DNA of 45,185 nt from Escherichia phage LL11, in sequence record NC_048064.1. The stretch is one strand, 5' to 3'. The translations under genes and the position numbers were made by a program. Positions within the stretch are counted from its first letter, which is position 1. Each line of letters begins with the position of its first letter. A model generated the notes under the pieces. It saw only the letters and a list, made by a program, of their open reading frames with translations, did not search any database and was not told the origin of the DNA. Of this stretch, positions 6,325 to 44,540 are shown piece after piece.

Positions 6325-6762
6325 ATGGAGATATGGATGCCAGTGCTAGGGCATGAATCCTACCACGTATCAAACCTAGGCCGTGTACGAGGAAAGAATG
6401 GTAAAATCCTTAAAGCAGGCTATGCAAGAGGTTACTTAAATGTTGTATTAGACAACAAGACGTACCCTGTTCATAGACTTGTGGCTTTATCTTTCGTAGA
6501 CGGTTACGCACCTGGGTTGGTTGTCAATCATATAGATGAATGTAAACATCATAATTTTGCATTTAATTTAGAATGGGTGACACAAGCTGCTAACGTAGAA
6601 CACAGTTTGGCAACAGACTTTGTAGTGCTCGACCCTGCTGGCGTAAAATATAAAGGGCGCAACGCCTCACGATTTGCACGAGAACACGGTTTATGCCCTC
6701 GCACTTTTCGTAAAATGTTGGCTGGTCAAATTTCTCACCATAAAGGTTGGACTAAAGTATGA
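6325..6762 (+). CDS. HNH homing endonuclease (paralog 1 of 3)
   Basis: 145 aa; N-terminal MEIWMPVLGHESYHVSNLGRVRG, HRLVA motif, NH...H..N HNH core, C-terminal HHKGW; paralogous to 10030-10509 and 44079-44540. Confidence 0.8.
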   Translation: MEIWMPVLGHESYHVSNLGRVRGKNGKILKAGYARGYLNVVLDNKTYPVHRLVALSFVDGYAPGLVVNHIDECKHHNFAFNLEWVTQAANVEHSLATDFVVLDPAGVKYKGRNASRFAREHGLCPRTFRKMLAGQISHHKGWTKV

Positions 6763-8747
6763 GCATTATTCAAAACGTTGGTTGTCCTGAGTGCATGAAG
6801 AACAACCACGATAAATCGCAGAACCACTTGATGATTTTCTCCGACGGGGCTGGTTACTGCAACCGTGCACACTTCCATGATAGTGGCAGACCATACTACC
6901 ATAAGCCCGAAGGTGGCATCGAGATAACCGAGTTGCCTATTACTGGCAATATCAAATACACACCTTCTCAATTCAAAGAGATGGAGAAGGAAGGGAAGAT
7001 AAGCGACCCTAAGCTACGCGCCATCGCTCTTGGTGGTATGCGTATGAAAGATCGTTGGGAGGTCATGAATGAGCAAGAAAGGGCAGACCAAGAAGCAGAG
7101 TGGAAACTTGATGTTGAATGGTTCCTCACGCTTAAGCGTAAGAACCTTGTTTCCAGACACATTCGCGGCGACATTTGCGCATTGTATGATGTACGTGTCG
7201 GACACGATGAAGAGGGTAGAGTCTCGCGGCATTACTATCCACGCTTCGAGAAAGGTGAGCTAGTAGGAGCTAAGTGTCGCACATTACCTAAAGACTTTAA
7301 GTTTGGTCATTTAGGTAAACTCTTTGGTATGCAAGATCTTTTCGGTATGAATACTTTGTCTCACGTGTTAGACAAGGGGAGACGAAAGGATTGCTTGCTT
7401 ATTGTGGGTGGGGAACTGGATGCGCTAGCAGCGCAGCAGATGCTCCTTGATTCTGCCAAGGGTACTAAGTGGGAAGGTCAACCTTACCATGTATGGTCTG
7501 TTAACAAAGGGGAGTCTTGCCTTGAAGAGATTGTGCAGAACCGTGAACACATCGCCCAATTCAAGAAGATTATTTGGGGCTTCGATGGGGATGAGGTAGG
7601 GCAGAAGCAGAACCAGCAAGCGGCTCGCCTGTTTCCTGGCAAATCCTATATCCTTGAGTACCCTTCTGGTTGCAAAGATGCCAACAAGGCATTGATGGCT
7701 GGCAAGGCTAAAGAGTTTGTTGATGCATGGTTTAATGCCAAGTCATCTGATGAAGTCTTTGGTAGCCAGATTAAATCTATCGCATCTCAAAGGGATAAGC
7801 TCAAGGCTGCACGTCCAGAGCAAGGACTATCATGGCCTTGGCCTAAGCTGAACAAGGTAACGCTAGGTATTCGTAAGAACCAGCTTATCATTATAGGTGC
7901 AGGCTCTGGTGTAGGTAAGACTGAGTTCCTTCGTGAAGTAGTTAAGCACCTCATTGAAGAACACGGTGAATCTGTAGGCATCATTTCTACAGAAGACCCG
8001 ATGGTCAAGGTGTCCCGTGCTTTTATCGGCAAGTGGATTGATAAGCGTATTGAGTTACCGCCAACCAACGACCCGAAAGAAGATGGATACCGTGAGGTGT
8101 TCGACTACACCGAGGAAGAAGCTAACGCCGCCATTGATTATGTAGCTGATACAGGTAAGCTGTTTGTGGCTGACCTAGAGGGTGACTATTCGATGGAAAA
8201 GGTAGAGCAAACTTGCCTAGAGTTTGAGGCTATGGGCATTTCTAATATCATCATTGATAACTTAACGGGGATTAAATTAGATGAGCGTGCTTTTGGTGGG
8301 AAGGTTGGTGCACTTGATGAATGCGTCAAGCGGATTGGTACTATCAAAGACAGACATGCAGTTACTATATTCCTTGTATCACACCTTACACGTCCTCCGG
8401 CAAACCGTACCCAACACGAAGAAGGTGGCGAGGTTATCCTTTCTGACTTCCGAGGCTCAGGAGCTATCGGATTCTGGGCATCTTACGCCTTGGGGATTGA
8501 GCGTAACACAAGAGCTGAAACGCTTGATGAAAGAACTACCACGTACATCTCATGTGTCAAAGACCGCGACCAAGGTATCTGGACTGGAACCAAGGTCATG
8601 CTTAAGGGTGACATTCAAACCGGACGTTTAATGGAACCACAAGCCCGTACTAAGTCATTTGATACAGGTGAAGCAAGGCAACAAGAAGTGCCTGATTTAC
8701 CGGACACTATAGAAGAGACTAACTTCGATGAAGAAAGTGAGTTTTGA
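6759..8747 (+). CDS. DNA primase/helicase (T7 gp4-like)
   Basis: 662 aa; N-terminal zinc motif CPEC...C..AH, Walker A GAGSGVGKTE, DnaB-like C-terminal half; acidic C-terminus ending ...EESEF. Confidence 0.9.
   Translation: MSIIQNVGCPECMKNNHDKSQNHLMIFSDGAGYCNRAHFHDSGRPYYHKPEGGIEITELPITGNIKYTPSQFKEMEKEGKISDPKLRAIALGGMRMKDRWEVMNEQERADQEAEWKLDVEWFLTLKRKNLVSRHIRGDICALYDVRVGHDEEGRVSRHYYPRFEKGELVGAKCRTLPKDFKFGHLGKLFGMQDLFGMNTLSHVLDKGRRKDCLLIVGGELDALAAQQMLLDSAKGTKWEGQPYHVWSVNKGESCLEEIVQNREHIAQFKKIIWGFDGDEVGQKQNQQAARLFPGKSYILEYPSGCKDANKALMAGKAKEFVDAWFNAKSSDEVFGSQIKSIASQRDKLKAARPEQGLSWPWPKLNKVTLGIRKNQLIIIGAGSGVGKTEFLREVVKHLIEEHGESVGIISTEDPMVKVSRAFIGKWIDKRIELPPTNDPKEDGYREVFDYTEEEANAAIDYVADTGKLFVADLEGDYSMEKVEQTCLEFEAMGISNIIIDNLTGIKLDERAFGGKVGALDECVKRIGTIKDRHAVTIFLVSHLTRPPANRTQHEEGGEVILSDFRGSGAIGFWASYALGIERNTRAETLDERTTTYISCVKDRDQGIWTGTKVMLKGDIQTGRLMEPQARTKSFDTGEARQQEVPDLPDTIEETNFDEESEF
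8695..8717 (+). promoter_or_regulatory. phage RNAP promoter inside the 3' end of the helicase gene
   Basis: ATTTACCGGACACTATAGAAGAG. Confidence 0.65.
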
Positions 8748-8767
8748 TTAGTGTATTTATCAGGGCT

Positions 8768-8785
8768 TGTCTCACATGTGAGACA
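8768..8785 (+). repeat. hairpin palindrome (family copy 3)
   Basis: TGTCTCACATGTGAGACA, 21 nt after the helicase stop. Confidence 0.7.
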
Positions 8786-8823
8786 GGCTCTTATTAAGTA
8801 CATTAAATAACTGGAGATTGATT

Positions 8824-9507
8824 ATGTATAAATTAGTATTGAATGTAGGTGATTATGTTCGTAACATCAATGTAACCTCACGTAGATATCGTTGCCGTGG
8901 TACTGTGACTAATGTAAGTGAAAACAGCTACTATGTAGAGTACAGTAATGGTATTAGACAGGCTTATCAAAAGGAATCAGCACATAACTACCTTGAGAAA
9001 ATTGGAGAGGTAAGCAATCAATGTAAGTGCGTACACGATGAGATTTGCGATAAGTGTGCCCGCCAGCTGCATAAAATGCTATTATATCCTCTTCGCTATG
9101 GTGCTGGTGTTCAAACATTAGCAGAGGCATATGGCAAAAGTAAGACCACACTCAAGAAAGAGCGCCGCAATGTAATCACTGGTAAGACTCAAAGTGAAAT
9201 TATTAAACTATGTGGCACTGCATTAGGTGTTACGCAGTTTAATACTCGTTCATTGGGTAAATCCACAGGGCAAGCTATGGTAAAGATTGGCGAAGCCATG
9301 ATGCAACCAAATGTACCTGTGCGAATCGTGGATATTGACCATGCAATCACAGAGCATGGTACACCACGCCGTGTAGCTAACAATCATTTTGCCGACACTA
9401 TAGAAGACATTATTCGTAAGCAAGGGTTGAAGGGTCTTCACATCTTAAATGATGAAGAGTTACTGTACCTCCCTATTGTTACTGAAGAAACCTACGTGAG
9501 TATCTAA
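8824..9507 (+). CDS. hypothetical protein with Cys cluster (about 228 aa)
   Basis: ATG 8824 with GGAGA RBS; CKCVHDEICDKC cluster; no family recognised by eye. Confidence 0.55.
   Translation: MYKLVLNVGDYVRNINVTSRRYRCRGTVTNVSENSYYVEYSNGIRQAYQKESAHNYLEKIGEVSNQCKCVHDEICDKCARQLHKMLLYPLRYGAGVQTLAEAYGKSKTTLKKERRNVITGKTQSEIIKLCGTALGVTQFNTRSLGKSTGQAMVKIGEAMMQPNVPVRIVDIDHAITEHGTPRRVANNHFADTIEDIIRKQGLKGLHILNDEELLYLPIVTEETYVSI
9386..9408 (+). promoter_or_regulatory. weak or variant phage RNAP promoter inside ORF 8824-9507
   Basis: ATTTTGCCGACACTATAGAAGAC; core -8 to +1 conserved, -13 to -9 divergent. Confidence 0.35.
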
Positions 9508-9517
9508 GGAGTTAATC

Positions 9518-9736
9518 ATGACTAAGGTATTAATTTATATGCGTGGACCTCATAAATGCTATGCAGTTGTAGCACCAAATGGTGTTAAGCCCTATAGTAC
9601 TTCAAAAGGATTGGCATTAATAGGTGCTAGTAGTAGTGCAAGTTTCCAAATGGAACTTTCTGGTCGTTGTACTGAATGGCAATTCCGTGAGGATTTTAAA
9701 GTCATTGGCAGCTTCATGGTGAAATATGCAGAATAA
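9518..9736 (+). CDS. hypothetical protein (72 aa)
   Basis: ORF track; AAGGAG RBS upstream. Confidence 0.45.
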   Translation: MTKVLIYMRGPHKCYAVVAPNGVKPYSTSKGLALIGASSSASFQMELSGRCTEWQFREDFKVIGSFMVKYAE

Positions 9737-9902
9737 ACATAGTCTTAAAATGTTCGATGGTCATGAAGACCTGCAAGCCAAGATTACTAACCAAGCCTTC
9801 CTGTTCGCACAGTTAACTATGGCTGAAGCAAAGAAGAATAGCCTGACGCGTGAACAGGTTATCAAGGAAAGTGAAGTGAAACGTAAGATTCGCAGTCGAT
9901 AA
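9726..9902 (+). CDS. hypothetical small protein (58 aa)
   Basis: ORF overlapping the previous stop; MQNKHSLKMFDGHEDLQAKITNQ...; start uncertain (internal ATG 9750 possible). Confidence 0.3.
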   Translation: MQNKHSLKMFDGHEDLQAKITNQAFLFAQLTMAEAKKNSLTREQVIKESEVKRKIRSR

Positions 9903-9911
9903 GTCAAGGGT

Positions 9912-9929
9912 TGTCTCACGTGTGAGACA
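9912..9929 (+). repeat. hairpin palindrome (family copy 4)
   Basis: TGTCTCACGTGTGAGACA with extended GGG/CCT flanks, directly after the stop at 9902. Confidence 0.7.
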
Positions 9930-9962
9930 GCCTTTCATCATATTGATTGGAGGATTAACTTT

Positions 9963-10070
9963 ATGAATAACTACGACTCTGATTGGGATTTCTACGATTC
10001 AATGCAATCTAAACCAGAAAGGAGGGAGGATGAGTTCGAAACAGATCAAATGTACGAGGATTTTTACTAA
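9963..10070 (+). CDS. hypothetical small acidic protein (35 aa)
   Basis: ATG 9963 with GGAGGA RBS; overlaps the start of the following HNH gene in another frame. Confidence 0.25.
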   Translation: MNNYDSDWDFYDSMQSKPERREDEFETDQMYEDFY

Positions 10071-10509
10071 CTACATCCTCTACTCTGATGGTCGAGTTCT
10101 TAACGAGAAAACCGGACAATATCTAAGAGGTTACTTAGATAAAGATGGGTATCATATTATGAATATTAAAGGGAAACACCTTAAAGTTCATCGATTAGTT
10201 GCTATCCATTTCATACCTAACCCTAATAATTTACCTGAAGTTAACCATAAAGATCATGACCGTCTAAACAATAATGATTGGAACCTAGAGTGGTGTACTC
10301 ATCAAGATAACAACAAGCATAGTTTGCATTTAGTAATAGCTTCTTGTGCTAAACGCTATGACTTTATATCACCACAAGGTGTCCATGTAGAAGTCTATAA
10401 CTTACGTGAGTTTTGTAGGAATAACAACCTACAGCAATCTCATATGGTTAAGGTGGCTAAAGGTAAAGTAAGACATCATAAAGGTTGGACTAATTATGTT
10501 AGATGTTGA
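10030..10509 (+). CDS. HNH homing endonuclease (paralog 2 of 3)
   Basis: 159 aa; strong RBS AGGAGGGAGG; HRLVA, HKDHDRLNNNDWNLEW HNH core, C-terminal HHKGW; abuts and overlaps the DNA polymerase start. Confidence 0.8.
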   Translation: MSSKQIKCTRIFTNYILYSDGRVLNEKTGQYLRGYLDKDGYHIMNIKGKHLKVHRLVAIHFIPNPNNLPEVNHKDHDRLNNNDWNLEWCTHQDNNKHSLHLVIASCAKRYDFISPQGVHVEVYNLREFCRNNNLQQSHMVKVAKGKVRHHKGWTNYVRC

Positions 10510-13042
10510 TTGGAAAGAATTTGGAAAGAATCGCATACTTGTCATGGATGCTGAAAGTAAAGGTTTGCTTGATGCCATACGCTATGGTCATCGTGAAGAT
10601 GTGCACATCATTTGCTGCATGGACTTGCTCACCACGGAGGAGTTCCTATTCTTCGACCCATATGAGATGCGTGACCCTGAGGCAAGGGAACGCCTGAAGG
10701 AGTGGGAAGGCCATCAAGACGGAACCTTGGTTGATGGTGTTAACTTCCTGAAGCATTGTGAAGCTATTGTGTCACAGAACTTCCTAGGATATGACGGTCT
10801 TCTCTTTGAGAAAGCATTCCCTGATATCTGGAAAGGCTTTAATTATACCGAGAAGCGCGGCAAGGGCAGACTCCGTGCCGACCTGTGCCCTATCCGTGTT
10901 GTCGACACGCTGGTGATGAGTCGCCTGTTAAACCCCGATAGACGCCTTCCTCCGCAAGCATATGCCAAAGGTATGGGTAACGTCACCCCTCACTCAATTG
11001 AGGCGCACGGCATCCGTATAGGTCGCTATAAACCGGAGAACGAGGACTGGTCTAAACTAACTGACCACATGGTTCACCGTGTACGTGAGGACGTGGCGAT
11101 TGGTCGTGACTTGTTCCTCTGGCTCTTTAACGGGGAATGGATGGAGCACAAACGCCGTGGCGTGAATAAACGCACGGGCCTAGGCATTGAGACAGCCTTC
11201 CACATGGAGTCCATTGTGGCGCTGGAGATGAGCCGTCAGGCCGAGCGCGGGTTCCGTCTGGACATCGACAAGGCTTTGGCCCGATGCGAAGAATTGGACG
11301 CTAAGATTGATGAGACAGTCGCAGCGTTCCGCCCTCACATGCCTATGCGTATCAAGTCTAAACCTTTTAAACCGGAAGAAAAGAATGAAGTATGCCAACG
11401 CGCAAATGAGTATGGAGCTAGCAACAATATACCTACTGTCCTTGACCCCTCACACTTTCTTCATGCCGAGAGACGAGGAGATCGCAAGACAGTATGGAGT
11501 GTCACTACTAAGTCTGGTGATTGGTCGGCTAGTGTCAAGAAAGACTTTCCTCACCTTAGAGGAAACCGTAATGACACGCCAAGTATCAAGTGGATTGGCG
11601 CTTACTCGCCTGTTACTTTCGAAGAGATTCCCTTGGGTAACAGGGATACAGTTAAGCAAGTGCTCTATGATTATGGATGGAAAGGTGTTGAATTTAACGA
11701 TACCGAGCAAGCGCATCTCGATGAGCACGGAGTGTTACCCAAACCTTGGAGTGGTAAGATAAATGAAAAGTCCCTTACTTTATGGCAAGAAAGAGCCGCA
11801 CGTGAAGGTAAAACAGTCCCTGATTGGTGCTTGGGTATCGCTGCATGGTACATACTCGTATCCCGTCGTGGTCAGATACTCAACCGTGGTGACGTTGAAG
11901 CCTTCAACGAGAAGGGAACGTGGCCCTCGCAGGCTGGTGTACGAAAGTGTCGCGGCCTTGTACCTGTAGCATTCAACAAGGAGCTAGGAATCAATGCGCA
12001 GCAATACTACGAGAGGTACGGATGTTGGCCTACGTCTGACAAAGATGACGGAGAGTGGCGTGTTCCAGCTGTTGCTATTAGCATTGGCACTTCTACGTTC
12101 CGTATGCGTCATCGTAACGTGGTCAATATTCCTGCCCGTGGCTTGTATCCTTTACGTGATTTATTCATAGCAGGGAAAGGCAAGCTAATCCTTGGTTGTG
12201 ACGGTGCAGGTCTTGAACTGCGTGTCCTGTCTCACTTCATGAATGACCCTGAGTACCAAGAGATTGTACTGCACGGTGATATTCATACGCATAACCAGAT
12301 GAAGGCTGGTCTTCCTAAGCGTGATATGGCGAAGACGTTTATATACGCCTTCCTCTATGGCTCTGGTATAGCCAACCTTGCAGCAGTATGTGGTGTTACT
12401 GAGGAAGAAATGAAGGAAGTTGTGGCAAGATTCGAGATTGAACTGCCGTCTCTTGCACGTCTTCGTGAGAATGTTATCGCACAAGGTAACAAGTTTGGCT
12501 ACCTGCAAGCACCTGATGGGCATTGGGGTCGCATCCGCATGTCTGGTGGTGAACTTAAAGAGCACACGATGCTTAACGTATTACTCCAGATGACTGGCTC
12601 TTTGTGTATGAAATATGCATTAGTCAAGGCATTTGCAGTAATGCGCAAGGAAGGTGTAGCCTTGGATGCTATGGGAAATCCTTGTGGTGTGGCTAACGTG
12701 CATGATGAAATCCAGATGGAAGTTCCTGAAGAGGAGGTCTTGTATCTTAACTACGACCTACCTTTCACCTTAGAGGGGTTCGAAACAGAGAAGGCTGCCG
12801 TGCAAGCAGTGTTCGATGCAGAGGAGAAACGTGTTCATGTGGATTCTGAAGGACGTATGTGGTCTGCTGCAAACCTCGTTAGTGTTGATGCTGATGCTGG
12901 TGTATTGCATTGCCAGCGCCGTTATCACCGTGCAGGTCATATCATTGCCGACGCCATGACTTGGGCAGGGCAGTATCTGAAGATGCGTTGCCCGATGGCA
13001 GGCGAATATAAGATTGGCGCAAGTTGGAAGGAAACACACTGA
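10496..13042 (+). CDS. DNA polymerase (family A, T7 gp5-like)
   Basis: 848 aa; motifs GLELRVLSHFM, GDIHTHNQ, KTFIYAFLYGSG, HDEIQMEV correspond to T7 DNAP pol motifs; N-terminal exonuclease region with acidic residues. Confidence 0.93.
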   Translation: MLDVDWKEFGKNRILVMDAESKGLLDAIRYGHREDVHIICCMDLLTTEEFLFFDPYEMRDPEARERLKEWEGHQDGTLVDGVNFLKHCEAIVSQNFLGYDGLLFEKAFPDIWKGFNYTEKRGKGRLRADLCPIRVVDTLVMSRLLNPDRRLPPQAYAKGMGNVTPHSIEAHGIRIGRYKPENEDWSKLTDHMVHRVREDVAIGRDLFLWLFNGEWMEHKRRGVNKRTGLGIETAFHMESIVALEMSRQAERGFRLDIDKALARCEELDAKIDETVAAFRPHMPMRIKSKPFKPEEKNEVCQRANEYGASNNIPTVLDPSHFLHAERRGDRKTVWSVTTKSGDWSASVKKDFPHLRGNRNDTPSIKWIGAYSPVTFEEIPLGNRDTVKQVLYDYGWKGVEFNDTEQAHLDEHGVLPKPWSGKINEKSLTLWQERAAREGKTVPDWCLGIAAWYILVSRRGQILNRGDVEAFNEKGTWPSQAGVRKCRGLVPVAFNKELGINAQQYYERYGCWPTSDKDDGEWRVPAVAISIGTSTFRMRHRNVVNIPARGLYPLRDLFIAGKGKLILGCDGAGLELRVLSHFMNDPEYQEIVLHGDIHTHNQMKAGLPKRDMAKTFIYAFLYGSGIANLAAVCGVTEEEMKEVVARFEIELPSLARLRENVIAQGNKFGYLQAPDGHWGRIRMSGGELKEHTMLNVLLQMTGSLCMKYALVKAFAVMRKEGVALDAMGNPCGVANVHDEIQMEVPEEEVLYLNYDLPFTLEGFETEKAAVQAVFDAEEKRVHVDSEGRMWSAANLVSVDADAGVLHCQRRYHRAGHIIADAMTWAGQYLKMRCPMAGEYKIGASWKETH

Positions 13043-14902: not shown

Positions 14903-14918
14903 GTCTCACGTGTGAGAC
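14903..14918 (+). repeat. hairpin palindrome (family copy 5)
   Basis: GTCTCACGTGTGAGAC, 2 nt after the stop at 14901 and 16 nt before promoter 14934. Confidence 0.7.
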
Positions 14919-15786: not shown

Positions 15787-16727
15787 TAGACGCTGATATG
15801 TTACCTTACATCGTCGGGTATACAATCAGTGACATGACTTATGTACGAGCTACAACTCGTGTTAAGTCAGGACAAGTCCCATCAATCAAAGATACCTCTG
15901 AGTGTAAGCAAGCGTGTGACCGTGTGAACTCCTTGCTTAACTCTTGGGTGTATGCAGCAGAGTGTGATGCAGCTAAGTTATTCATGACGAAGTCAGAAGC
16001 TAACTTCCGTGTCCGCCTAGCATTCACCAAACCTTATAAAGGTCAACGTAAGACCGAGAAGCCTCCATTCTTCTATGAAATGCGAGAGCATCTCTTAGAG
16101 GTTCACGGTGCAGTCTTGGCAGATGGAGATGAGGCCGACGATCTCATGAGCATTGCACAATGGGATAGCCATCGCCGCTTCCAGCAAGATACAGGCAACG
16201 AGTTCCCTATCGGTAGTCCAGAGCATAAAGCATTCTCTGATACTTGCATCGTTTCCTTGGATAAGGATTTGATGATTGTACCCGGTTGGCATCTTCAGCC
16301 GGGAGGTGAGAAGAAATGGGTAGAACCTATGGGTTGGCTTGAGTTACGCCGCAAGGCTAATGGTCAAGTCAAAGACCTAAAAGGTGCTGGCCTCATGTTC
16401 CATTATGCACAGATGGTTATTGGTGATGATATTGATAACTATGCTGGCATACCTGGACGTGGTGCTAAATACGCCTATGATCTTCTCAAAGATTGTAAGA
16501 CAGAGAAAGAGTTGTACATGGCAGTGCTTGGTGCTTACAAGGCTAAGTTCGGACATGGACAAGTTAAGATTAAGAATTACCGAGGTGGTTATCGTATCGG
16601 CAAGGCTTTTGACCTGATGCTCGAATGTGGTCGCCTAGCTCACATGGCAAGATTCAAAGGTGATATATGGCGAGCCGATAAGAACCCAATCTTGTGGGGA
16701 GATGATGCGGAATGGTTAGCAAATTAA
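15699..16727 (+). CDS. 5'-3' exonuclease (T7 gp6-like, FEN family)
   Basis: ATG 15699 with AAGGAG 8 nt upstream (track start 15690 is a GTG); N-terminal acidic motif IALIDADMLPY, DGDEADD, GDDIDNYAGIPG. Confidence 0.75.
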   Translation: MRPNFDFGATVSEDNNLILWPTEGNRIALIDADMLPYIVGYTISDMTYVRATTRVKSGQVPSIKDTSECKQACDRVNSLLNSWVYAAECDAAKLFMTKSEANFRVRLAFTKPYKGQRKTEKPPFFYEMREHLLEVHGAVLADGDEADDLMSIAQWDSHRRFQQDTGNEFPIGSPEHKAFSDTCIVSLDKDLMIVPGWHLQPGGEKKWVEPMGWLELRRKANGQVKDLKGAGLMFHYAQMVIGDDIDNYAGIPGRGAKYAYDLLKDCKTEKELYMAVLGAYKAKFGHGQVKIKNYRGGYRIGKAFDLMLECGRLAHMARFKGDIWRADKNPILWGDDAEWLAN

Positions 16728-17122
16728 AATCATCGGAGGTAGCAGCTTATAAGAGGGAATTGCTAGAGAAGCAAGGATGGAAGTGCCCCCTATGTGGCGG
16801 CAGTCTCAAGGCTGTTACTCCTATAAACCGTGTACTTGACCATGACCATGAGACAGGATTCTGCCGTGCTGTTGTATGCAGAGGGTGCAATGGTGCAGAA
16901 GGAAAGATTAAGGGTGTTATCTCTGGTTATGGTAAGGCTGGTAACAACCGTTACTTCCAGCTTCAATGGTTAGAGCGACTATATGAATACTGGAAGTTAC
17001 ATAGTACGCCTCAGACAGATAAGTTATATCACAAACACCAAACGGAGGCAGAGAAGCGCGAGGCTAAGAACCGTAAGGCACGCCTTGCTTATGCAAGAAA
17101 GAAGGAGGTTAAAGTTGGGTAA
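16712..17122 (+). CDS. endonuclease VII-type Holliday junction resolvase (HNH/zinc)
   Basis: 136 aa; CPLCGG ... LDHDHETGFCRAVVCRGCNGAEGKIKG parallels the T4 endonuclease VII zinc-binding/HNH core as I remember it. Confidence 0.75.
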   Translation: MVSKLKSSEVAAYKRELLEKQGWKCPLCGGSLKAVTPINRVLDHDHETGFCRAVVCRGCNGAEGKIKGVISGYGKAGNNRYFQLQWLERLYEYWKLHSTPQTDKLYHKHQTEAEKREAKNRKARLAYARKKEVKVG

Positions 17123-31216: not shown

Positions 31217-31260
31217 GTTATACTCAAGGTTTGTCTCACATGTGAGACATGCCTTTATGA
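31217..31260 (+). promoter_or_regulatory. conserved stop-adjacent element GTTATACTCAAGGT-hairpin-GCCTTTATGAAT (copy 2)
   Basis: Same flanking boxes as 13257-13297; here the hairpin is the palindrome TGTCTCACATGTGAGACA (31232-31249, family copy 6). Confidence 0.5.
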
Positions 31261-36249: not shown

Positions 36250-36532
36250 ACATGCAGCTACAGAGGATGAGGTTGGCATTCTGCATGGTGCTATTACCAA
36301 AATCTTCAATAAGAAAGCACAGGCAATACTGGACACTATAGAAGAAGACCCTGATGCAGCATTACATTTAGTGTCTGGTAAGGATATTGGTGCGATGTGT
36401 AAGTGGGTTCTTGATAACGGCATTACCGCCACACCTGCTGCACAGCAGGAAGAGTCCAAGTTATCTAAGCGCCTCAAGGCTATCAGAGAGGCATCCAGTG
36501 GTAAGATAATTCAATTCACTAAGGAGGGTTGA
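36233..36532 (+). CDS. terminase small subunit (gp18-like)
   Basis: GTG 36233 preceded by GGAGGGAG; about 99 aa; immediately upstream of the large terminase gene; no ATG available near the 5' end. Confidence 0.6.
   Translation: MSVHNKHAATEDEVGILHGAITKIFNKKAQAILDTIEEDPDAALHLVSGKDIGAMCKWVLDNGITATPAAQQEESKLSKRLKAIREASSGKIIQFTKEG
36324..36346 (+). promoter_or_regulatory. phage RNAP promoter inside the small terminase gene
   Basis: CAATACTGGACACTATAGAAGAA; positions -13 to +6 match consensus. Confidence 0.5.
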
Positions 36533-38430
36533 TGGCTAAGGCAAGAGAATCACAAGCAGAGGCTCTTGCCAGATGGGAGATGCTACAGGAGTTACAGCAG
36601 ACCTTTCCGTACACATCGGAAGGTTTGCTTCTCTTTGCAGACACAGTTATTCATAACTTGATTGCAGGCAACCCTCATCTGATTCGTATGCAGGCTGATA
36701 TCTTGAAGTTCCTATTCTACGGACACAAGTACCGCCTCATCGAAGCGCCTCGTGGTATCGCTAAGACAACACTATCAGCAATCTATACGGTATTCCGTAT
36801 TATTCATGAACCGCATAAGCGTATCATGGTTGTGTCCCAAAACGCCAAGCGAGCAGAGGAAATCGCAGGTTGGGTAGTTAAAATCTTCCGTGGCTTAGAC
36901 TTTCTTGAGTTTATGCTGCCGGATATCTACGCTGGGGACCGTGCATCCGTTAAGGCGTTTGAGATTCATTACACCCTACGTGGTAGTGATAAGTCTCCTT
37001 CTGTATCCTGTTACTCAATCGAAGCAGGTATGCAGGGTGCTCGTGCTGATATTATTCTAGCGGATGACGTAGAGTCGATGCAGAATGCTCGTACGGCAGC
37101 GGGCCGTGCCTTGCTTGAGGAACTGACTAAGGAGTTTGAATCTATCAACCAGTTTGGGGATATCATTTACCTTGGTACACCTCAGAACGTAAACTCTATC
37201 TACAACAACCTACCTGCTCGTGGTTACTCTGTTCGTATCTGGACTGCGCGTTACCCTTCAGTAGAGCAAGAGCAATGTTATGGCGACTTCCTTGCACCTA
37301 TGATTGTTCAAGATATGAAGGACAACCCAGCACTTCGCTCAGGGTACGGGTTGGATGGTAATAGTGGTGCACCTTGTGCCCCTGAAATGTATGATGATGA
37401 AGTCCTGATTGAGAAGGAAATCTCTCAGGGTGCTGCTAAGTTCCAGCTTCAGTTCATGCTTAACACTCGCATGATGGATGCTGACAGATACCCATTACGC
37501 CTGAACAATCTAATCTTCACCTCGTTTGGTACAGAGGAAGTCCCTGTGATGCCTACGTGGAGTAATGATTCCATAAACATCATTGGTGATGCACCTAAGT
37601 ATGGTAACAAGCCTACGGATTTCATGTACAGACCTGTAGCTCGCCCATACGAATGGGGTGCTGTCTCCCGCAAGATTATGTATATCGACCCTGCGGGTGG
37701 TGGTAAGAACGGAGATGAGACGGGTGTAGCCATCGTATTCCTGCACGGCACATTCATTTATGTGTATAAGTGCTTTGGTGTACCTGGCGGATACCGAGAG
37801 TCGTCCCTGAATCGCATTGTGCAGGCCGCAAAGCAGGCTGGTGTTAAAGAGGTATTCATTGAGAAGAACTTTGGTCATGGCGCGTTTGAGGCGGTAATTA
37901 AGCCGTACTTTGAACGAGAGTGGCCTGTAACTCTGGAAGAGGATTACGCCACCGGACAGAAAGAGTTGCGTATCATTGAGACGCTGGAGCCGCTCATGGC
38001 AGCCCATAGGCTTATCTTCAATGCAGAGATGGTGAAGTCAGACTTTGAGTCGGTACAGCACTATCCGCTTGAACTACGCATGTCCTACAGTCTTTTCAAT
38101 CAAATGTCGAACATAACGATTGAGAAGAACAGCCTCCGGCACGATGACCGCCTAGACGCCCTGTATGGCGCTATACGGCAATTAACTTCTCAGATAGACT
38201 ATGACGAGGTTACTCGAATTAATCGCCTCAGAGCGCAGGAGATGCGTGATTATATACAGGCGATGAATACACCTAGGCTTCGTCGGGCCATGCTGTACGG
38301 TGATTATGGTGATGAGCGAAGAACAACTAACACCTCTCTAGCGATGCAGCAGAGGGTTTACGGGCAGGACTACCGAAATAAATCGGCAAGCAGAAATACA
38401 CTTTCTGCAAGGATTTCAAGGACTTATTAA
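36532..38430 (+). CDS. terminase large subunit (gp19-like)
   Basis: 632 aa; ATPase N-terminal domain with Walker A-like APRGIAKT and nuclease C-terminal domain; AAGGAGG RBS. Confidence 0.93.
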   Translation: MAKARESQAEALARWEMLQELQQTFPYTSEGLLLFADTVIHNLIAGNPHLIRMQADILKFLFYGHKYRLIEAPRGIAKTTLSAIYTVFRIIHEPHKRIMVVSQNAKRAEEIAGWVVKIFRGLDFLEFMLPDIYAGDRASVKAFEIHYTLRGSDKSPSVSCYSIEAGMQGARADIILADDVESMQNARTAAGRALLEELTKEFESINQFGDIIYLGTPQNVNSIYNNLPARGYSVRIWTARYPSVEQEQCYGDFLAPMIVQDMKDNPALRSGYGLDGNSGAPCAPEMYDDEVLIEKEISQGAAKFQLQFMLNTRMMDADRYPLRLNNLIFTSFGTEEVPVMPTWSNDSINIIGDAPKYGNKPTDFMYRPVARPYEWGAVSRKIMYIDPAGGGKNGDETGVAIVFLHGTFIYVYKCFGVPGGYRESSLNRIVQAAKQAGVKEVFIEKNFGHGAFEAVIKPYFEREWPVTLEEDYATGQKELRIIETLEPLMAAHRLIFNAEMVKSDFESVQHYPLELRMSYSLFNQMSNITIEKNSLRHDDRLDALYGAIRQLTSQIDYDEVTRINRLRAQEMRDYIQAMNTPRLRRAMLYGDYGDERRTTNTSLAMQQRVYGQDYRNKSASRNTLSARISRTY

Positions 38431-38866: not shown

Positions 38867-38883
38867 GAGAAGGAGGAGATTAC

Positions 38884-39171
38884 ATGGCTAAATATGGTGA
38901 AGGTTCTGTTACTGGTCAGGCTTTTCGAGTAAAAGCAGTACAAACTATTGCAACGGCAATCCCGATGCCTGTTGTTAAAGAAGCAGACCTTAAGAGAAAA
39001 GATCACCCTATCAACATCAAACACCTGTCAGGTAAGCAGAAAGGTGCAATGGTTGCTCTTGAGAAAGATGACACAACCATGCATATTGCTGTTGCACGTG
39101 GCAGTGAACCCACAGACTCATGGGATGTAACTGGTATGGAAGAGGCCGCTGTTACTCCAGCAGGGGAATAA
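38884..39171 (+). CDS. hypothetical late protein, paralog B (95 aa)
   Basis: ATG 38884 with AAGGAGGAG RBS; tandem paralog of 38588-38866. Confidence 0.55.
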   Translation: MAKYGEGSVTGQAFRVKAVQTIATAIPMPVVKEADLKRKDHPINIKHLSGKQKGAMVALEKDDTTMHIAVARGSEPTDSWDVTGMEEAAVTPAGE

Positions 39172-39173
39172 TA

Positions 39174-39518: not shown

Positions 39519-39626
39519 GATGTGTTGAATGATGTGAGCGTATGGTTGCCCAAGCTGCCGAGGATGGCAACTATGATGACTGGAAGAACTACTCTGACTT
39601 GTTAGCTCAATGGAAAGGGAGATGCA

Positions 39627-39776
39627 ATGAAAAAGCTGTTTAAGTCTAAGAAGGTTGTAGGTGCACTGGTTGCACTTGTTATTGCTCTTGTTTCTGTAGG
39701 TCTTGGTGTAGACCTTGGCTCTGGCACGGAATCCTCTGTGACAGATGTGGTCTGCCAAGTGATCACCTGTGAATAA
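39627..39776 (+). CDS. small membrane protein (49 aa), possible lysis accessory
   Basis: MKKLFKSKKVVGALVALVIALVSVGLGV... with one transmembrane helix; between endolysin and spanins. Confidence 0.4.
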   Translation: MKKLFKSKKVVGALVALVIALVSVGLGVDLGSGTESSVTDVVCQVITCE

Positions 39777-39990
39777 GTTTCTAGAAGTTCTGGCAGGTCT
39801 TATTGGCCTGCTTGTCTCTGCTAAGAAGAAACAAGAAGAGAAGGAGGCACAAAGTGAAGCGAATCATGTTAGTGACAACCCTTCTGATTGGTTCGCTGAC
39901 CACTTCCGGGTGTCAGCAGGCGTTACCAGAGAAAGCAATGGTGAAACCTCTGAGGCCGACGCTGACGGAAGTTTACGAGGTAGACGATAA
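39769..39990 (+). CDS. putative i-spanin (Rz-like)
   Basis: N-terminal transmembrane helix FLEVLAGLIGLLV followed by a charged periplasmic region; contains the start of an overlapping lipoprotein ORF in the +1 frame. Confidence 0.5.
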   Translation: MNKFLEVLAGLIGLLVSAKKKQEEKEAQSEANHVSDNPSDWFADHFRVSAGVTRESNGETSEADADGSLRGRR

Positions 39991-40063
39991 GGTCTGCTTT
40001 AGTAATCCTGACGCTACAAAACTTGGTTTGTACATTCTCTCGCTAGAACGCGGATACAATTAA
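39854..40063 (+). CDS. putative o-spanin (Rz1-like lipoprotein), overlapping the i-spanin
   Basis: GTG 39854 6 nt after AGGAGG; signal-like KRIMLVTTLLIGSLTTSG followed by Cys (lipobox-like); extends beyond the i-spanin stop. Confidence 0.5.
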   Translation: MKRIMLVTTLLIGSLTTSGCQQALPEKAMVKPLRPTLTEVYEVDDKVCFSNPDATKLGLYILSLERGYN

Positions 40064-40092
40064 TACATAGCTTTATGTATCAGTGTCTTATG

Positions 40093-40115
40093 ATTTACTG
40101 GACACTATAGAAGAG
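40093..40115 (+). promoter_or_regulatory. phage RNAP promoter for the tailspike genes (exact consensus)
   Basis: ATTTACTGGACACTATAGAAGAG followed by leader hairpin GCGCCGTTC-TTTT-GAGCGGC. Confidence 0.8.
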
Positions 40116-40194
40116 GTAAGATAGCGCCGTTCTTTTGAGCGGCCTATTACTAGCCAATCTTCATAGGGAGGGTTGGAAAGTAATAGGAGATAGC

Positions 40195-42093
40195 ATGGCT
40201 AAATTAACCAAACCTAATACTGAAGGAATCTTGCATAAAGGACAATCTTTGTATGAGTACCTTGATGCGAGAGTTTTAACATCAAAGCCGTTTGGTGCTG
40301 TAGGTGACGCCACTACTGATGATACTGTGGTTATAGCTGATTCATTAAACTCTCAGAAAGCTGTCACAGTCTCAGACGGTGTATTCTCTAGCTCTGGTAT
40401 TAATAGTAATTACTGTAACTTAGACGGCAGGGGTAGTGGCGTGCTAAGTCACCGTTCAAGTACAGGTAACTACTTAGTATTTAACAATCTACGTGCAGGT
40501 CGCTTAAGTAATATTACGGTAGAAAGTAATAAGGCGACTGATACAACTCAGGGACAGCAGGTCTCCCTTGCTGGTGGAAGTGATGTTACTGTAAGTGACG
40601 TTAACTTCTCAAACGTTAAAGGTACTGGTTTCAGTTTAATCGCATACCCTAATGATGCGCCACCGGATGGACTTATGATTAAAGGCATTCGAGGTAGCTA
40701 TTCCGGCTATGCTACTAATAAGGCAGCCGGATGCGTACTTGCTGACTCCTCAGTTAACTCCCTCATAGATAACGTCATTGCTAAGAACTACCCTCAGTTC
40801 GGAGCAGTAGAGTTGAAAGGTACAGCCAGTTACAACATAGTCAGTAATGTTATAGGGGCAGATTGCCAGCATGTAACTTACAACGGCACTGTAGGGTCAA
40901 TAGCTCCCTCTAATAACCTTATCAATGGGGTAGTGGCTAATAATCCTAAGTATGCAGCGGTTGTTGCAGGCAAAGGTAGTACGAACTTAATCTCAGACGT
41001 GCTCGTAGATTACTCAACTTCTGATGCGAGGCAGGCTCATGGTGTTACCGTAGAAGGGTCTGATAACGTCATAAATAATGTGCTTATGTCAGGGTGTGAT
41101 GGTACTAACTCTTTAGGACAAGGGCAGACTGCTATAATTGCACGCTTTATAGGTACAGCTAATAACAACTATGCGTCTGTATTTCCTAGCTACAGTGCTA
41201 CAGGTGTTATTACTTTCGAATCCGGCTCTACCCGTAACTTCGTAGAGGTAAAGCACCCGGGCAGGAGAAACGACCTTCTCAGCTCTGCTAGTACTATTGA
41301 CGGTGCAGCTACTATTGACGGCACTAATAATAGTAACGTAGTGCACGCACCTGCATTAGGGCAGTACATAGGTAGTATGTCAGGTAGGTTCGAATGGCGG
41401 ATTAAGTCCATGTCACTGCCTTCAGGCGTTCTTACTTCTGCTGATAAGTACAGAATGCTTGGGGATGGTGCTGTGTCATTAGCTGTAGGTGGAGGCACTT
41501 CTTCTCAAGTTCGCCTATTTACTTCTGATGGTACTTCTCGGACAGTGTCCCTCACCAACGGTAACGTGCGTCTTTCTACCAGTAGCACAGGCTATTTGCA
41601 GTTAGGTGCTGATGCAATGACCCCAGATAGTACTGGTACATACGCCTTAGGTTCCGCCAGTCGAGCATGGTCTGGCGGTTTTACTCAAGCAGCATTCACT
41701 GTTACCTCAGATGCTCGGTGTAAAACAGAACCTCTTACTATCTCAGATGCCTTACTGGATGCTTGGTCTGAAGTTGACTTTGTGCAGTTTCAGTATTTGG
41801 ATCGTGTTGAGGAGAAGGGTGCAGACTCAGCTAGATGGCACTTCGGTATCATCGCCCAGCGAGCTAAGGAGGCCTTCGAACGTCACGGTATAGATGCACA
41901 TCGCTATGGCTTCTTGTGCTTCGACAGTTGGGATGATGTATACGAGGAAGATGCCAATGGCTCTCGTAAACTGATTACACCAGCAGGTTCCCGCTACGGT
42001 ATTCGTTACGAGGAAGCACTGATATTAGAGGCTGCGTTGATGCGGCGGACTGTTAAGCGTATGCAGGAAGCACTAGCTTCCATGCCTAAGTAA
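40195..42093 (+). CDS. tailspike 1: beta-helix depolymerase with C-terminal intramolecular chaperone (peptidase S74-type) domain
   Basis: 632 aa from ATG 40195 (AGGAGA RBS); Ser/Thr/Gly/Asn-rich repetitive beta-helix middle; C-terminus SDARCK ... ARWHFGIIAQRAKEAFERHGIDAHRYGFLCFDSWDD matches the autoproteolytic chaperone module of endosialidase/K5-lyase-type tailspikes. Confidence 0.85.
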   Translation: MAKLTKPNTEGILHKGQSLYEYLDARVLTSKPFGAVGDATTDDTVVIADSLNSQKAVTVSDGVFSSSGINSNYCNLDGRGSGVLSHRSSTGNYLVFNNLRAGRLSNITVESNKATDTTQGQQVSLAGGSDVTVSDVNFSNVKGTGFSLIAYPNDAPPDGLMIKGIRGSYSGYATNKAAGCVLADSSVNSLIDNVIAKNYPQFGAVELKGTASYNIVSNVIGADCQHVTYNGTVGSIAPSNNLINGVVANNPKYAAVVAGKGSTNLISDVLVDYSTSDARQAHGVTVEGSDNVINNVLMSGCDGTNSLGQGQTAIIARFIGTANNNYASVFPSYSATGVITFESGSTRNFVEVKHPGRRNDLLSSASTIDGAATIDGTNNSNVVHAPALGQYIGSMSGRFEWRIKSMSLPSGVLTSADKYRMLGDGAVSLAVGGGTSSQVRLFTSDGTSRTVSLTNGNVRLSTSSTGYLQLGADAMTPDSTGTYALGSASRAWSGGFTQAAFTVTSDARCKTEPLTISDALLDAWSEVDFVQFQYLDRVEEKGADSARWHFGIIAQRAKEAFERHGIDAHRYGFLCFDSWDDVYEEDANGSRKLITPAGSRYGIRYEEALILEAALMRRTVKRMQEALASMPK

Positions 42094-42100
42094 GCAACAG

Positions 42101-42132
42101 GCAGTGCGTAAGCACTGCTTTTCACGCAACTT
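42101..42132 (+). terminator. rho-independent terminator between the two tailspike genes
   Basis: GCAGTGC-GTAA-GCACTGC stem-loop followed by TTTTCACGCAACTTTTCTT. Confidence 0.7.
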
Positions 42133-42178
42133 TTCTTAAAGGTTATCATGGTGGTAGCCTTTCAGAAAAGGAGGTTAC

Positions 42179-43891
42179 ATGCTTCAAAGATTAAGTGCTT
42201 ACTTGGTGAAGTACAAGAGTAAACTAACAGGTACTATTGAGCGCCTGCTATCTGATAAACTATCGGATACAATAGATGTTGCGGATTTTGGAGTTAATCC
42301 CTCTTCTAATGACAACAGGCGAGCCCTTCAAGCTGCATTCAATGCGGTCAGATTGCTAGGCGGTGGTACTGTATCAGTCACTAAAGCTGGCGAATATAAA
42401 CTCAGTGGCACTGTTGAGATATTTGCTAATACACACTTCAAGGTTGCTAAAGGTGTAACATTTGTACGTGACTACGAAACAGGAGATACGCTATTCAGAT
42501 TATCACAAGGGCAAGCTAGTAATGTAACAGTCAGTGGAGGTGTCTATGAAGGCAATGGTCACACTAAAGGGGATACACCTTTTGTAGTATTTGCATCTAC
42601 TAGTAATAATGATTTGAAGTTTGAAGGCATAACAGTTAACAATGTAGTGGACTACCACGCCATAGATTTAGCAGATTGGAACAACGTAGTTATTCGTGAT
42701 TGTAAATTCCTAGGGTTTAAGAATACAGGCAGTCGTAACTTCTCAGAGGCTATACAGTTAGACCCAGGTCTTATTACAGTTGGTCACTATGTACAGTCAA
42801 GCGGTATGCTGGTGGAGAATTGCTATGCTGGTCCAAACCCAGAATCCGGGTTTGGGGGTTATGGTGCACTAATCGGAAATCACGCCTCAGCTTATGGTGT
42901 ACAGGACAACAATATCCGTATCTTGAATTGCACTACAGATGGTGCTCTCTTTGCAGGTGTACGTGTATTTAACTGGAAAAACTGGACAGTACGTGGTTGC
43001 ACCTTTAGAAACTCTAATGCAAGGGGTGTTCATGTTACACCTGTCTCCTCTCAAACTAAACCGCAAGGGACTCGACAAGGTAGTGTTGTAGATTGTACTT
43101 TTGATGGCGTAAGAACACCAGTGCTAATTGCTGCACCATCTTGGCCTTTTACCGATATTAGTGACATTTGGCATGACCATATTGAAATTTCTAATAATAC
43201 TATGATCCTCACAGAGGATGTATCCTATGGTGTAGATGCAAGGTGGTGTAAGAATTTAATTGTAAAAGGTAATACAGGCTCTGGTGGCTTAGGGTTAATC
43301 GGTTTACGCTTTGGGACAAAATACCACATCGAAGGTAATACTTGGGAAAACGGAAGAGGTAGTGGGATTTGGTTAGGTGAGTCTGATGCTACTACATTCA
43401 TTGGTACTGGTTTATCAGGAGAAGGTATACTTAGTCGTAATATCTTCTCTAAATTAGGGCAATATGGTATTCATGTAAACTGCAAGGCTAGCGGTCTAGT
43501 GGTTAAAGCTAATAATATGAAGGAAGTATCTACCGCTGAAGCAGGTAGACACTTCATTAGTATAGACACAGGAGCTAACAACATCCTAGTAGAAGGTAAT
43601 ATTGGAGTAGATGGAGAGAGCCTTAACAAGCCAAGCCTTGGTATTCGTGTTACTTCTTCTTGCTCCAATATTAAACTAATTGGCAATGATTGCTATGGTA
43701 CGCAAGCACCTCAGAATAACCAAGGGGTCGGTTCTAGTACGGTGATTGTCTATGGACTAAATGGCAATCCTACAACTTTAGGTGTAGGTGCACCTGTCGG
43801 TTCTTTGGCAACGGATATTAATGGGTCTGGTGGTAGTACATTGTACATTAAAGAATCTGGTACATCTGCTCAAGGTTGGGTTGCAAAGTAG
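42179..43891 (+). CDS. tailspike 2: second beta-helix (pectate-lyase-fold-like) receptor-binding protein
   Basis: 570 aa; AAAAGGAGG RBS; repetitive Gly/Asn/Val/Thr-rich sequence with Asn ladders typical of right-handed beta-helix depolymerases; no C-terminal chaperone module. Confidence 0.8.
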   Translation: MLQRLSAYLVKYKSKLTGTIERLLSDKLSDTIDVADFGVNPSSNDNRRALQAAFNAVRLLGGGTVSVTKAGEYKLSGTVEIFANTHFKVAKGVTFVRDYETGDTLFRLSQGQASNVTVSGGVYEGNGHTKGDTPFVVFASTSNNDLKFEGITVNNVVDYHAIDLADWNNVVIRDCKFLGFKNTGSRNFSEAIQLDPGLITVGHYVQSSGMLVENCYAGPNPESGFGGYGALIGNHASAYGVQDNNIRILNCTTDGALFAGVRVFNWKNWTVRGCTFRNSNARGVHVTPVSSQTKPQGTRQGSVVDCTFDGVRTPVLIAAPSWPFTDISDIWHDHIEISNNTMILTEDVSYGVDARWCKNLIVKGNTGSGGLGLIGLRFGTKYHIEGNTWENGRGSGIWLGESDATTFIGTGLSGEGILSRNIFSKLGQYGIHVNCKASGLVVKANNMKEVSTAEAGRHFISIDTGANNILVEGNIGVDGESLNKPSLGIRVTSSCSNIKLIGNDCYGTQAPQNNQGVGSSTVIVYGLNGNPTTLGVGAPVGSLATDINGSGGSTLYIKESGTSAQGWVAK

Positions 43892-43902
43892 TAGGAGGTT
43901 GA

Positions 43903-44052
43903 ATGCCCTTAATCAAATCAGTTAAGCAAAGTGCTGTACGTCAGAACACAGAGGAACTTATTCAATCAGGACGTGACCCTAAGCAAGCCTATGCGATTGC
44001 CAAGGATGTACAACGTCGTGCCATGAAGAAACCTTCTGCATCTTCTGCGTAA
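43903..44052 (+). CDS. hypothetical small basic protein (49 aa)
   Basis: ATG 43903 with AGGAGG RBS; MPLIKSVKQSAVRQNTEELIQSGRDPKQAYAIAKDVQRRAMKKPSASSA. Confidence 0.35.
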   Translation: MPLIKSVKQSAVRQNTEELIQSGRDPKQAYAIAKDVQRRAMKKPSASSA

Positions 44053-44078
44053 GCAGGTTAATATCTTAGGAGGTAATT

Positions 44079-44540
44079 GTGGAAATTTGGAGGCCTATTG
44101 CTGGTATACCAGATTACATGGTTTCCTCCTTTGGTCGTGTTAGATCTCATAAAAGAGGTAAGGTTACTATACTAAACCCTCCGCACGACAAAGGAGGTTA
44201 TCGTAATGTTGTGCTACGTGCTAATGGTGAAAAGATAAATCGCAAGGTACATAGGCTTGTGGCAGAGGCTTTCTTACCTAATCCTCGCGGTCTACCTCAA
44301 GTAAATCACAAGGATGAAGTAAGAGACAATAATCATGTAAGTAATCTGGAGTGGTGTGATTGTGCATACAACGTAGATTACTCTCAAGCAGCTACTTATA
44401 TTGTGATGTGCCCTAAAGGTAATATATTAGTAGTAAGGAATGTGGCTAAGTTTTGTAGGGAAAACGGATTAAGCAGTGGTTCTTTTACAGATATGCTTAA
44501 GGGAAGACGTAAGCAACATAAGGGTTATCGCTTAGTGTAA
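44079..44540 (+). CDS. HNH homing endonuclease (paralog 3 of 3)
   Basis: GTG 44079 5 nt after AGGAGG; MEIWRPIAGIPDYMVSSFGRVRS, HRLVAEAF, NHKD...NNH..NLEW, C-terminal QHKGY; last gene before the terminal region. Confidence 0.8.
   Translation: MEIWRPIAGIPDYMVSSFGRVRSHKRGKVTILNPPHDKGGYRNVVLRANGEKINRKVHRLVAEAFLPNPRGLPQVNHKDEVRDNNHVSNLEWCDCAYNVDYSQAATYIVMCPKGNILVVRNVAKFCRENGLSSGSFTDMLKGRRKQHKGYRLV

Follow-up and report, generated by a model that had tools for sequence, protein, structure and literature searches.

The complete 45,185-nucleotide stretch of Escherichia phage LL11 analyzed here (sequence record NC_048064.1; hereinafter the window) carries three open reading frames (ORFs) with HNH-endonuclease motifs, and these raise the question of what such genes are and how they came to lie beside a primase gene, a DNA polymerase gene and the terminal region of the genome. 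The original prediction had placed three paralogous homing endonuclease genes (HEGs) at 6325-6762, 10030-10509 and 44079-44540, and all three are present there on the plus strand: HNH-1 (6325..6762; 145 amino acids, ATG start), HNH-2 (10030..10509; 159 amino acids, ATG start) and HNH-3 (44079..44540; 153 amino acids, with a GTG start that has AGGAGG 6 nt upstream, the orthologue in phage vB_Ec-G9 [hereinafter G9] beginning with ATG). The window is a genome of the Vectrevirus K1-5/K1E group (Autographiviridae, Molineuxvirinae), an SP6-like coliphage. We consider it likely that HNH-1, HNH-2 and HNH-3 are free-standing HEGs, which would spread by cleaving or nicking empty alleles and co-converting the flanks. 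An I-HmuI-like domain architecture, insertion into intergenic slots, a patchy distribution, alternative slot occupants, linked flanking alleles, purifying selection and a foreign GC content together make up this HEG signature.

Comparison of the three proteins with each other gave identities of 35-42% (BLASTP e-values 2e-18 to 4e-31; phmmer e-values 1e-15 to 5e-27), and the same two programs found no further ORF of the window matching any of them. HRLVA, the HNH core VNH(K/I)D...NLEW...N and the C-terminal HKGW/HKGY, all of which had been described as shared, were indeed recovered in each protein; the N-terminal block MEIW.P..G...Y.VS..GRVR, likewise ascribed to all three, is found in HNH-1 and HNH-3 and not in HNH-2, which begins MSSKQIKCTRIFTNYILYSDGRV. 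A profile built from the three proteins matched one solved structure, that of I-HmuI (PDB 1U3E), over residues 3-167 of 174 (e-value 9e-34), the alignment reaching residue 167 and thereby taking in the HHKGYT motif. The columns aligned to I-HmuI His75, Asn96 and the NLEW asparagine are invariant across HNH-1, HNH-2 and HNH-3, and I-HmuI Asp74 is replaced by asparagine in each; in 1U3E we take His75 to be the general base and Asn96 to be the metal ligand. Pfam recovered HNH_3 (cut-off 24.8 bits) in HNH-2 (25.1) and HNH-3 (25.6), with HNH-1 (20.9) just under the cut-off, and NUMOD4 (cut-off 23.4 bits) in HNH-1 (30.7) and HNH-3 (52.2). The N-terminus of HNH-2, with a 6-residue deletion and an 8-residue extension, is still alignable (YSDGRV). 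The C-terminal PF22083 domain (I-HmuI NUMOD-like; cut-off 27 bits) was seen at sub-cut-off scores in HNH-3 (23.8) and HNH-2 (16.1). All three proteins fall in the PHROGs HNH endonuclease family phrog_59. The full-length match to a solved structure settles the predicted family as I-HmuI-like HNH, with a putative architecture in which an N-terminal NUMOD4-type DNA-binding domain is followed by the HNH catalytic core and, at the C-terminus, by a NUMOD-like helix-turn-helix. The Endonuclease VII gene (gp21; 16712-17122), whose product is labelled 'HNH endonuclease motif protein' in some relatives and is present in all relatives examined, was considered as a fourth paralogue and rejected, since it belongs to the Endonuclease VII family and phmmer shows no kinship to the three HNH proteins.

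A search of the window with Rfam found no group I intron and no RNA family of any kind, and the genes flanking HNH-1, HNH-2 and HNH-3 are complete, co-linear with the empty alleles and joined at exact junctions. Because of the empty Rfam result and the intact neighbors, the three genes are best described as free-standing, that is, as ORFs of their own in intergenic slots, and we rejected for the window the alternative of intron-encoded HEGs on the same grounds. When presence was scored among genomes about 90% identical, all three sites proved polymorphic within Vectrevirus, as expected from the proposal that the genes could differ between relatives; none of them is fixed at the same site in every relative.

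HNH-1 lies between the RNA polymerase region and the primase, as first described, in the order gp8 (6193..6321, plus strand, 42 amino acids; the conserved left flank of this site), HNH-1 and the primase/helicase gene (6759-8747). It exactly fills the slot from the gp8 stop (TAAGTT) to the primase/helicase ATG, with which its own TGA overlaps (ATGA). Alignment of the window with three relatives showed that the slot is empty in K1-5, holds a 72-amino-acid gp8.5 in K1E and T147P1, and holds HNH-1 in the window. The DNA of HNH-1 was covered by 0 of 97 related phage records, and none of 50,697 phage records holds a close counterpart of the protein, the top match being one of 46% in Klebsiella phage RCIP0053. 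An IMG/VR scan recovered just one close copy, at the same place in UViG_3300045988_002160 (44.9 kb; about 91% identical to the window across a 5.4-kb aligned segment); over 129 codons the two copies differ at 11 synonymous and 0 nonsynonymous positions. For isolated Vectrevirus genomes, HNH-1 in the gp8/primase slot is new, but of a known kind.

The 5′ end of the primase/helicase gene, immediately downstream of HNH-1, forms a diverged patch that is co-inherited with it (6759..6900, plus strand; codons 1 to about 45, a Cys-rich zinc-finger region). Over its first approximately 140 nt the gene is 62-82% identical to six Vectrevirus genomes, rising to 92-100% after about position 6900. By contrast, the patch is about 91% identical at the nucleotide level, with 1 amino-acid difference, to Salmonella phage BP12B (Zindervirus), which has an HNH gene (BP12B_09; 41-44% identical to HNH-1) in the identical gp8/primase slot with the same ATGA overlap. 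Past codon 50 or so the window primase is Vectrevirus-like (dS 0.25 versus K1-5 and 1.7 versus BP12B). In tblastn searches of 231 records the first 53 primase residues were matched at 96% identity or more only in BP12B and GRNsp03, both of them Salmonella phages with an HNH in the gp8/primase slot; the other 228 records, including the HNH-less SP6, K1-5 and Klebsiella SP6-like phages, reached at most 81%. A pattern scan of IMG/VR for this allele recovered UViG_3300045988_002160 and one 43,602-bp contig only. We predict that this patch marks the location of the HNH-1 target in empty alleles, the window's version being a putative resistant variant. A second mosaic patch was also noted further inside the primase/helicase gene (7150-7300): it is 72-80% identical to G9, LI10P5, EEc4 and the UViG, and 94-100% identical to K1-5, T147P1 and ULINTec7, with no HEG adjoining it in the window genome.

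At the second site, HNH-2 lies directly upstream of the family A DNA polymerase gene (10496-13042) and overlaps its start, in keeping with the first reading of the sequence, by 14 nt. Its 5′ end overlaps the gp12 homologue (9963..10070, plus strand, 35 amino acids), the first 8 HNH-2 codons lying in another frame; the 3′ end of gp12 is recoded within the HNH-2 cassette and yields AAAGGAGG, a Shine-Dalgarno sequence for HNH-2. VEc3 has nothing at the site, the 14-nt overlap with the polymerase start being made there by gp12 itself, and KMB47 has an unrelated 72-amino-acid ORF; the 14-nt overlap with the polymerase ATG is kept by every occupant of this site. HNH-2 itself, at 99% amino-acid identity or more, is present in 4 of 83 related records (two records of T147P9, ULINTec7 and LI10P5), and diverged alleles occupy the same site in 6 more (61-62% identical in Sem1-4 and ULINTec4; 52% in T205P4); the IMG/VR scan added no further close copy. 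The gene has a foreign composition, as judged by its GC content of 34.6% versus 45% for the window. Its omega values are approximately 0.06-0.08 versus ULINTec7 and LI10P5, and 0.35 versus the 61% allele; the substitution patterns of HNH-1 and HNH-2 thus point to strong purifying selection on both. Here too a diverged 5′ patch of the downstream gene is co-inherited with the HNH gene (10496..10600, plus strand; polymerase codons 1 to about 35, a span that takes in the Exo I motif RILVMDAE): four genomes lacking HNH-2 match it at 76-80% identity, and two HNH-2 carriers at 100% and then 86-88%. The differences comprise residue changes in the first 12 codons and many third-codon positions across Exo I. 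In empty alleles, we predict that the HNH-2 target lies in this stretch.

The third site follows the second tailspike gene (42179-43891) and has as its conserved left flank a gp48 homologue (43903..44052, plus strand, 49 amino acids). That HNH-3 sits at the right genome end next to the terminal region holds good, its end lying 62 nt before the direct terminal repeat; to be added is that the window is a circular permutation of the whole genome with a single copy of the repeat, the left-end sequence that follows the repeat continuing at position 1. This conclusion comes from the mapping of the 234-bp K1-5 repeat to its homologue at 44603..~44852 (without strand; the concatemer junction, which is context for HNH-3 and outside the element) and from the sequence running from window end to window start, which is contiguous in 5 relatives. 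The slot holds a 42-amino-acid gp49 in K1-5, 6948 and EEc4, which HNH-3 replaces in the window, and in Sem1-4 a different HNH of 124 amino acids without the C-terminal domain. Among 94 related records HNH-3 is shared with one, that of G9 (97% amino-acid identity), and the IMG/VR scan found no close copy. The 62-nt spacer between HNH-3 and the terminal repeat (44541..44602, plus strand) is diverged and co-inherited with the gene, its identity being about 64-67% with K1-5, LI10P5 and T147P1 and 96-97% with G9. Close to the right edge of the repeat we also observed a G-rich run (GGGTGGGGGAGGGGGGGGGGGAGGGGCG; 44822-44846), which exceeds its counterparts in G9, 6948 and Sem1 by about 15 nt.

The three genes had been called paralogous, which stands as loose family membership and fails in the sense of recent duplicates or close paralogues, for nearer relatives are found in other phages and the lineages follow the insertion site. 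HNH-2 has a homologue of 47% identity in Klebsiella phage ZK1, and HNH-3 has homologues of 48-50% in Erwinia phage Era103 (50%) and Klebsiella phage K1-ULIP33; HNH-1 is equally near I-HmuI of phage SPO1 (41%) and HNH-3 (43%). In a neighbor-joining tree the occupants of site 2 form one group and those of site 3 another. As homologues in other phages are closer (46-50%) than the proteins within the genome are to each other, and as the tree groups them by site, HNH-1, HNH-2 and HNH-3 are independent acquisitions. Further sites are used elsewhere in the genus: G9 has HNH genes at two more slots, one separating the Endonuclease VII gene from the phosphoesterase gene and the other the RNA polymerase gene from gp8 (L014 10260-10715 and 43707-44123), and in ULINTec7 the primase/helicase gene is split by an HNH ORF in an intron-like arrangement (L018 6722-9497). 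Including the three of the window, the sequences examined document at least six HEG sites in the genus. The terminase gene has been described as split in K1E and phD2B (PMC4246154).

On the homing reading, the phage RNA polymerase would transcribe each HNH gene along with its neighbors, and in a mixed infection with a relative lacking the gene the enzyme would nick or cut the empty allele at a specific sequence. For HNH-1 the predicted target is the opening approximately 130 bp of the primase/helicase gene, for HNH-2 the opening approximately 100 bp of the DNA polymerase gene, and for HNH-3 the approximately 60 bp before the terminal repeat. Recombinational repair off the HEG-bearing genome would then copy the HEG with a short flanking tract into the recipient, such that the diverged flank patches would be co-converted tracts, which probably protect the carrier from its own enzyme. 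With HNH-1 and HNH-2 overlapping the start codons of essential genes, translational coupling would be kept and clean loss of the HEG would become harder. Each patch starts precisely at its gene's 3′ junction and goes with the presence of that gene.

Several observations weigh against this reading or limit its firmness. Taken alone, the flank patches are no statistical outliers, falling at about the 2nd-19th percentile of 100-nt identity windows, since these genomes are mosaic throughout; we consequently rejected flank divergence as a stand-alone statistical proof, and the argument therefore rests on its linkage to gene presence, especially that of the primase allele. This linkage has its own complication: the primase patch differs from that of BP12B at 13 synonymous positions (dS about 0.8) and the HNH proteins in the two slots share just 41-44% identity. 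This level of dS shows that the association between HNH gene and primase allele is old and maintained and not a recent inter-genus transfer. The HNH-1 copy in the UViG has an extra A in an A-run (L019 3380-3440, about window position 6712), the resulting +1 frameshift at about codon 130 taking away the last 15 residues including the C-terminal HHKGW; this could be decay or a homopolymer sequencing error. HNH-3 and its G9 orthologue differ at 5 nonsynonymous and 3 synonymous positions, and the resulting omega of 0.46 comes from a number of changes too small for a verdict. On the domain level, Pfam detects no NUMOD4 in HNH-2 and gives no PF22083 match in HNH-1, though both regions align to I-HmuI. 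Finally, cleavage, nicking, target positions and homing are predictions, while what the sequences themselves show is the homology, the intact catalytic residues, the exactness of the junctions, the patchy occurrence in relatives, the linked flank alleles and the purifying selection.

We give a small but real probability to the alternative that these genes are kept mainly as phage-phage weapons, which degrade or exclude co-infecting relatives (marker exclusion) to the benefit of the carrier, versus being purely selfish passengers. Predicted targets in competitors' essential replication genes and beside the packaging junction would suit such a role, as would the purifying selection on the HNH proteins; marker exclusion has moreover been reported for expressed I-HmuI-like HNHs of Skunavirus (PMC12724721) and for T4 mobE (PMC2790892). 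The low frequency of each gene in the genus speaks against a strong general advantage, and sequence data cannot separate this role from homing, the molecular mechanism being identical. Separately, and as a long shot, HNH-3 might recognize the conserved approximately 60 bp before the terminal repeat in HEG-less relatives and nick competitor concatemers at the packaging junction, coupling homing to sabotage of the rival's genome maturation; in more general terms, the HNH-linked primase zinc-finger allele of Escherichia and Salmonella phages would represent the carriage of essential-gene segments by HEGs across genus boundaries.

It is rather improbable that the three genes are inactive relics, former HEGs that no longer cut and are kept since their overlaps with essential genes make deletion costly. 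The full-length state of all three ORFs in the window, the conservation of the residues aligned to the I-HmuI catalytic histidine and metal-binding asparagine, and the strong purifying selection on HNH-1 and HNH-2 argue otherwise, against the frameshift in the other known HNH-1 copy, the loss of the C-terminal domain in the slot-3 HNH of Sem1-4 and the HNH-3 omega of 0.46, which count in favor of relics.

A packaging or concatemer-processing role had been hinted at for the terminal copy, in which HNH-3 would serve as a packaging accessory working with the terminase to nick or cut at the concatemer junction. HNH proteins encoded beside terminase genes act in this way in HK97-like cos phages, and the position of the HNH-3 end 62 nt upstream of the repeat boundary, with a co-inherited spacer, would be compatible with such an activity. 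We found no indication of it: HNH-3 is missing from nearly all relatives, those with gp49 or with the truncated, different HNH being viable isolates, and about 5.6 kb separate the gene from the end of the terminase large-subunit gene (36529-38430) upstream of it. The architecture is that of the homing enzyme I-HmuI, unlike the small, single-domain terminase-associated HNH proteins, and the trait of HK97 gp74-type proteins, a conserved presence beside the terminase genes across a phage group, is not seen for HNH-3 (1 of 94 records). A packaging role for HNH-3 is thus unlikely; as a full account of the gene we hold it highly improbable and rejected it on distribution and distance from the terminase genes. 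That the three genes are duplicates that arose recently within this genome and later dispersed is barely credible and was rejected on identity, outside homologues and tree, since, against a common domain order, shared motifs and the match of 19 of 20 nt at the 3′ ends of HNH-1 and HNH-2, there stand pairwise identities of just 35-42% with no other nucleotide similarity, closer homologues elsewhere (RCIP0053, ZK1 and Era103), the clustering of site-2 and site-3 genes each with occupants of their own site, and relatives that have one gene without the others.

Regarding the genomic setting of these putative HEGs, a megablast search with the first 25 kb of the window matched 147 phage records, the best being Vectrevirus Escherichia phages of about 90-93% identity, and the gene order agrees with that of K1-5. 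The HNH genes are co-oriented with their neighbors. A putative promoter for the phage RNA polymerase, assigned by its similarity to the SP6/K1-5 consensus (ATTTACCGGACAGTATAGATAAG; 6145..6167, plus strand), would drive gp8, HNH-1 and primase/helicase; SP6/K1-5-type promoters were detected at 5965, 6149, 8699, 13332, 13795, 14941, 23081, 36331, 38436 and 40100. A strong terminator-like hairpin follows the RNA polymerase gene (3242-5869) at 5877-5900, and no terminator-like sites were found between the promoters and HNH-1 or HNH-2, nor on the plus strand around HNH-3. We infer from this arrangement that HNH-1 and HNH-2 are expressed with the middle genes and HNH-3 with the late genes. The 3′ ends of HNH-1 and HNH-2 have 19 of 20 nt in common (CAYCATAAAGGTTGGACTAA, encoding HHKGWT; 6736-6755 and 10474-10493), and over the rest of their length the two genes have no significant nucleotide similarity. 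The stretch ends 3 nt and 2 nt before the primase and polymerase start codons, respectively, with its AAAGG 11-12 nt upstream of them, and it may double as the ribosome-binding region of the essential downstream gene.

Two further features of the window are recorded here. A 16-bp perfect palindrome, GTCTCAC(RY)GTGAGAC, occurs in 7 copies on the plus strand with 0 expected (5943-5958, 6124-6139, 7358-7373, 8769-8784, 9913-9928, 14903-14918 and 31233-31248), and an eighth, with a single mismatch, straddles the permutation point (..GTCTCACA and TGTTAGAC.. on its two sides). Several copies lie just upstream of phage promoters (5965, 6149, 14941), and HNH-2 has one about 100 nt upstream of it; the palindrome may be an RNA-processing, terminator or regulatory hairpin. 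The tailspikes (first gene 40135-42093; the pair spanning 40135-43891) are unlike the K5 lyase and K1 endosialidase of K1-5, with a Peptidase_S74 chaperone domain in one and a beta-helix/NosD domain in the other. The phage probably has a different capsule specificity, as the region 43300-43900 gives no alignment to K1-5 or ULINTec7.

The main value of these findings lies in the annotation and the understanding of mosaicism of the therapeutic K1-5/SP6-like coliphages. The three genes mark recombination hotspots next to the genes for primase and polymerase and next to the genome end, and they yield three testable target-site predictions. Their products are candidates for novel nicking enzymes with site specificity, and in phage cocktails or engineering crosses the genes could skew how markers are inherited. 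Existing annotation already lists HNH-2 and HNH-3 as HNH (homing) endonucleases, in ULINTec7 (UCR91882.1; 99% identical to HNH-2, same site) and G9 (EcG9_044; 97% identical to HNH-3, same site), respectively; BP12B_09 shares with HNH-1 the slot and the primase N-terminal allele, and phD2B is also among the SP6-like phages with annotated HNH homing endonucleases. To our knowledge, none of these SP6-like phage HNHs (UCR91882.1, EcG9_044, BP12B_09 and those of phD2B) has been characterized biochemically, and we found no dedicated study of Vectrevirus HEGs in the literature.

Among known systems, HNH-1, HNH-2 and HNH-3 most resemble I-HmuI of Bacillus phage SPO1 (1U3E), with its relatives I-HmuII, I-BasI and I-PfoP3I, in their domain order and in the catalytic histidine and asparagine, HNH-1 being 41% identical to I-HmuI. 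Nicking enzymes of this type target phage DNA polymerase genes, I-PfoP3I doing so in a T7-like phage (PMC3428280). Unlike HNH-1, HNH-2 and HNH-3, which are free-standing, the members of this group have coding sequences that lie in group I introns within the polymerase gene; the three proteins also fall 15-29 residues short of I-HmuI in length, owing to a smaller linker joining HNH core and C-terminal domain. In genomic behavior they can be likened, by description, to the free-standing HNHs of T4-like phages (mobA-E, e.g., MobE), which adjoin essential genes, occur sporadically and mobilize themselves together with flanking DNA (PMC2790892, PMC2988022); the window genes are likewise free-standing, sporadic and placed beside conserved essential genes, in another phage lineage. 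More generally, HEGs cluster beside essential phage genes and at recombination boundaries (PMC10448857). The I-HmuI-like HNHs of lactococcal Skunavirus phages, which differ in being Gram-positive siphoviruses, vary in number and location among close genomes and have a phylogeny that follows the insertion site, and a role in marker exclusion has been shown for some of them (PMC12724721); by description, the grouping by insertion site in our tree is of the same kind. The three genes of the window belong to an ordinary, well-understood class of selfish elements, to which they add site-specific detail while leaving the current understanding of homing endonucleases unchanged.

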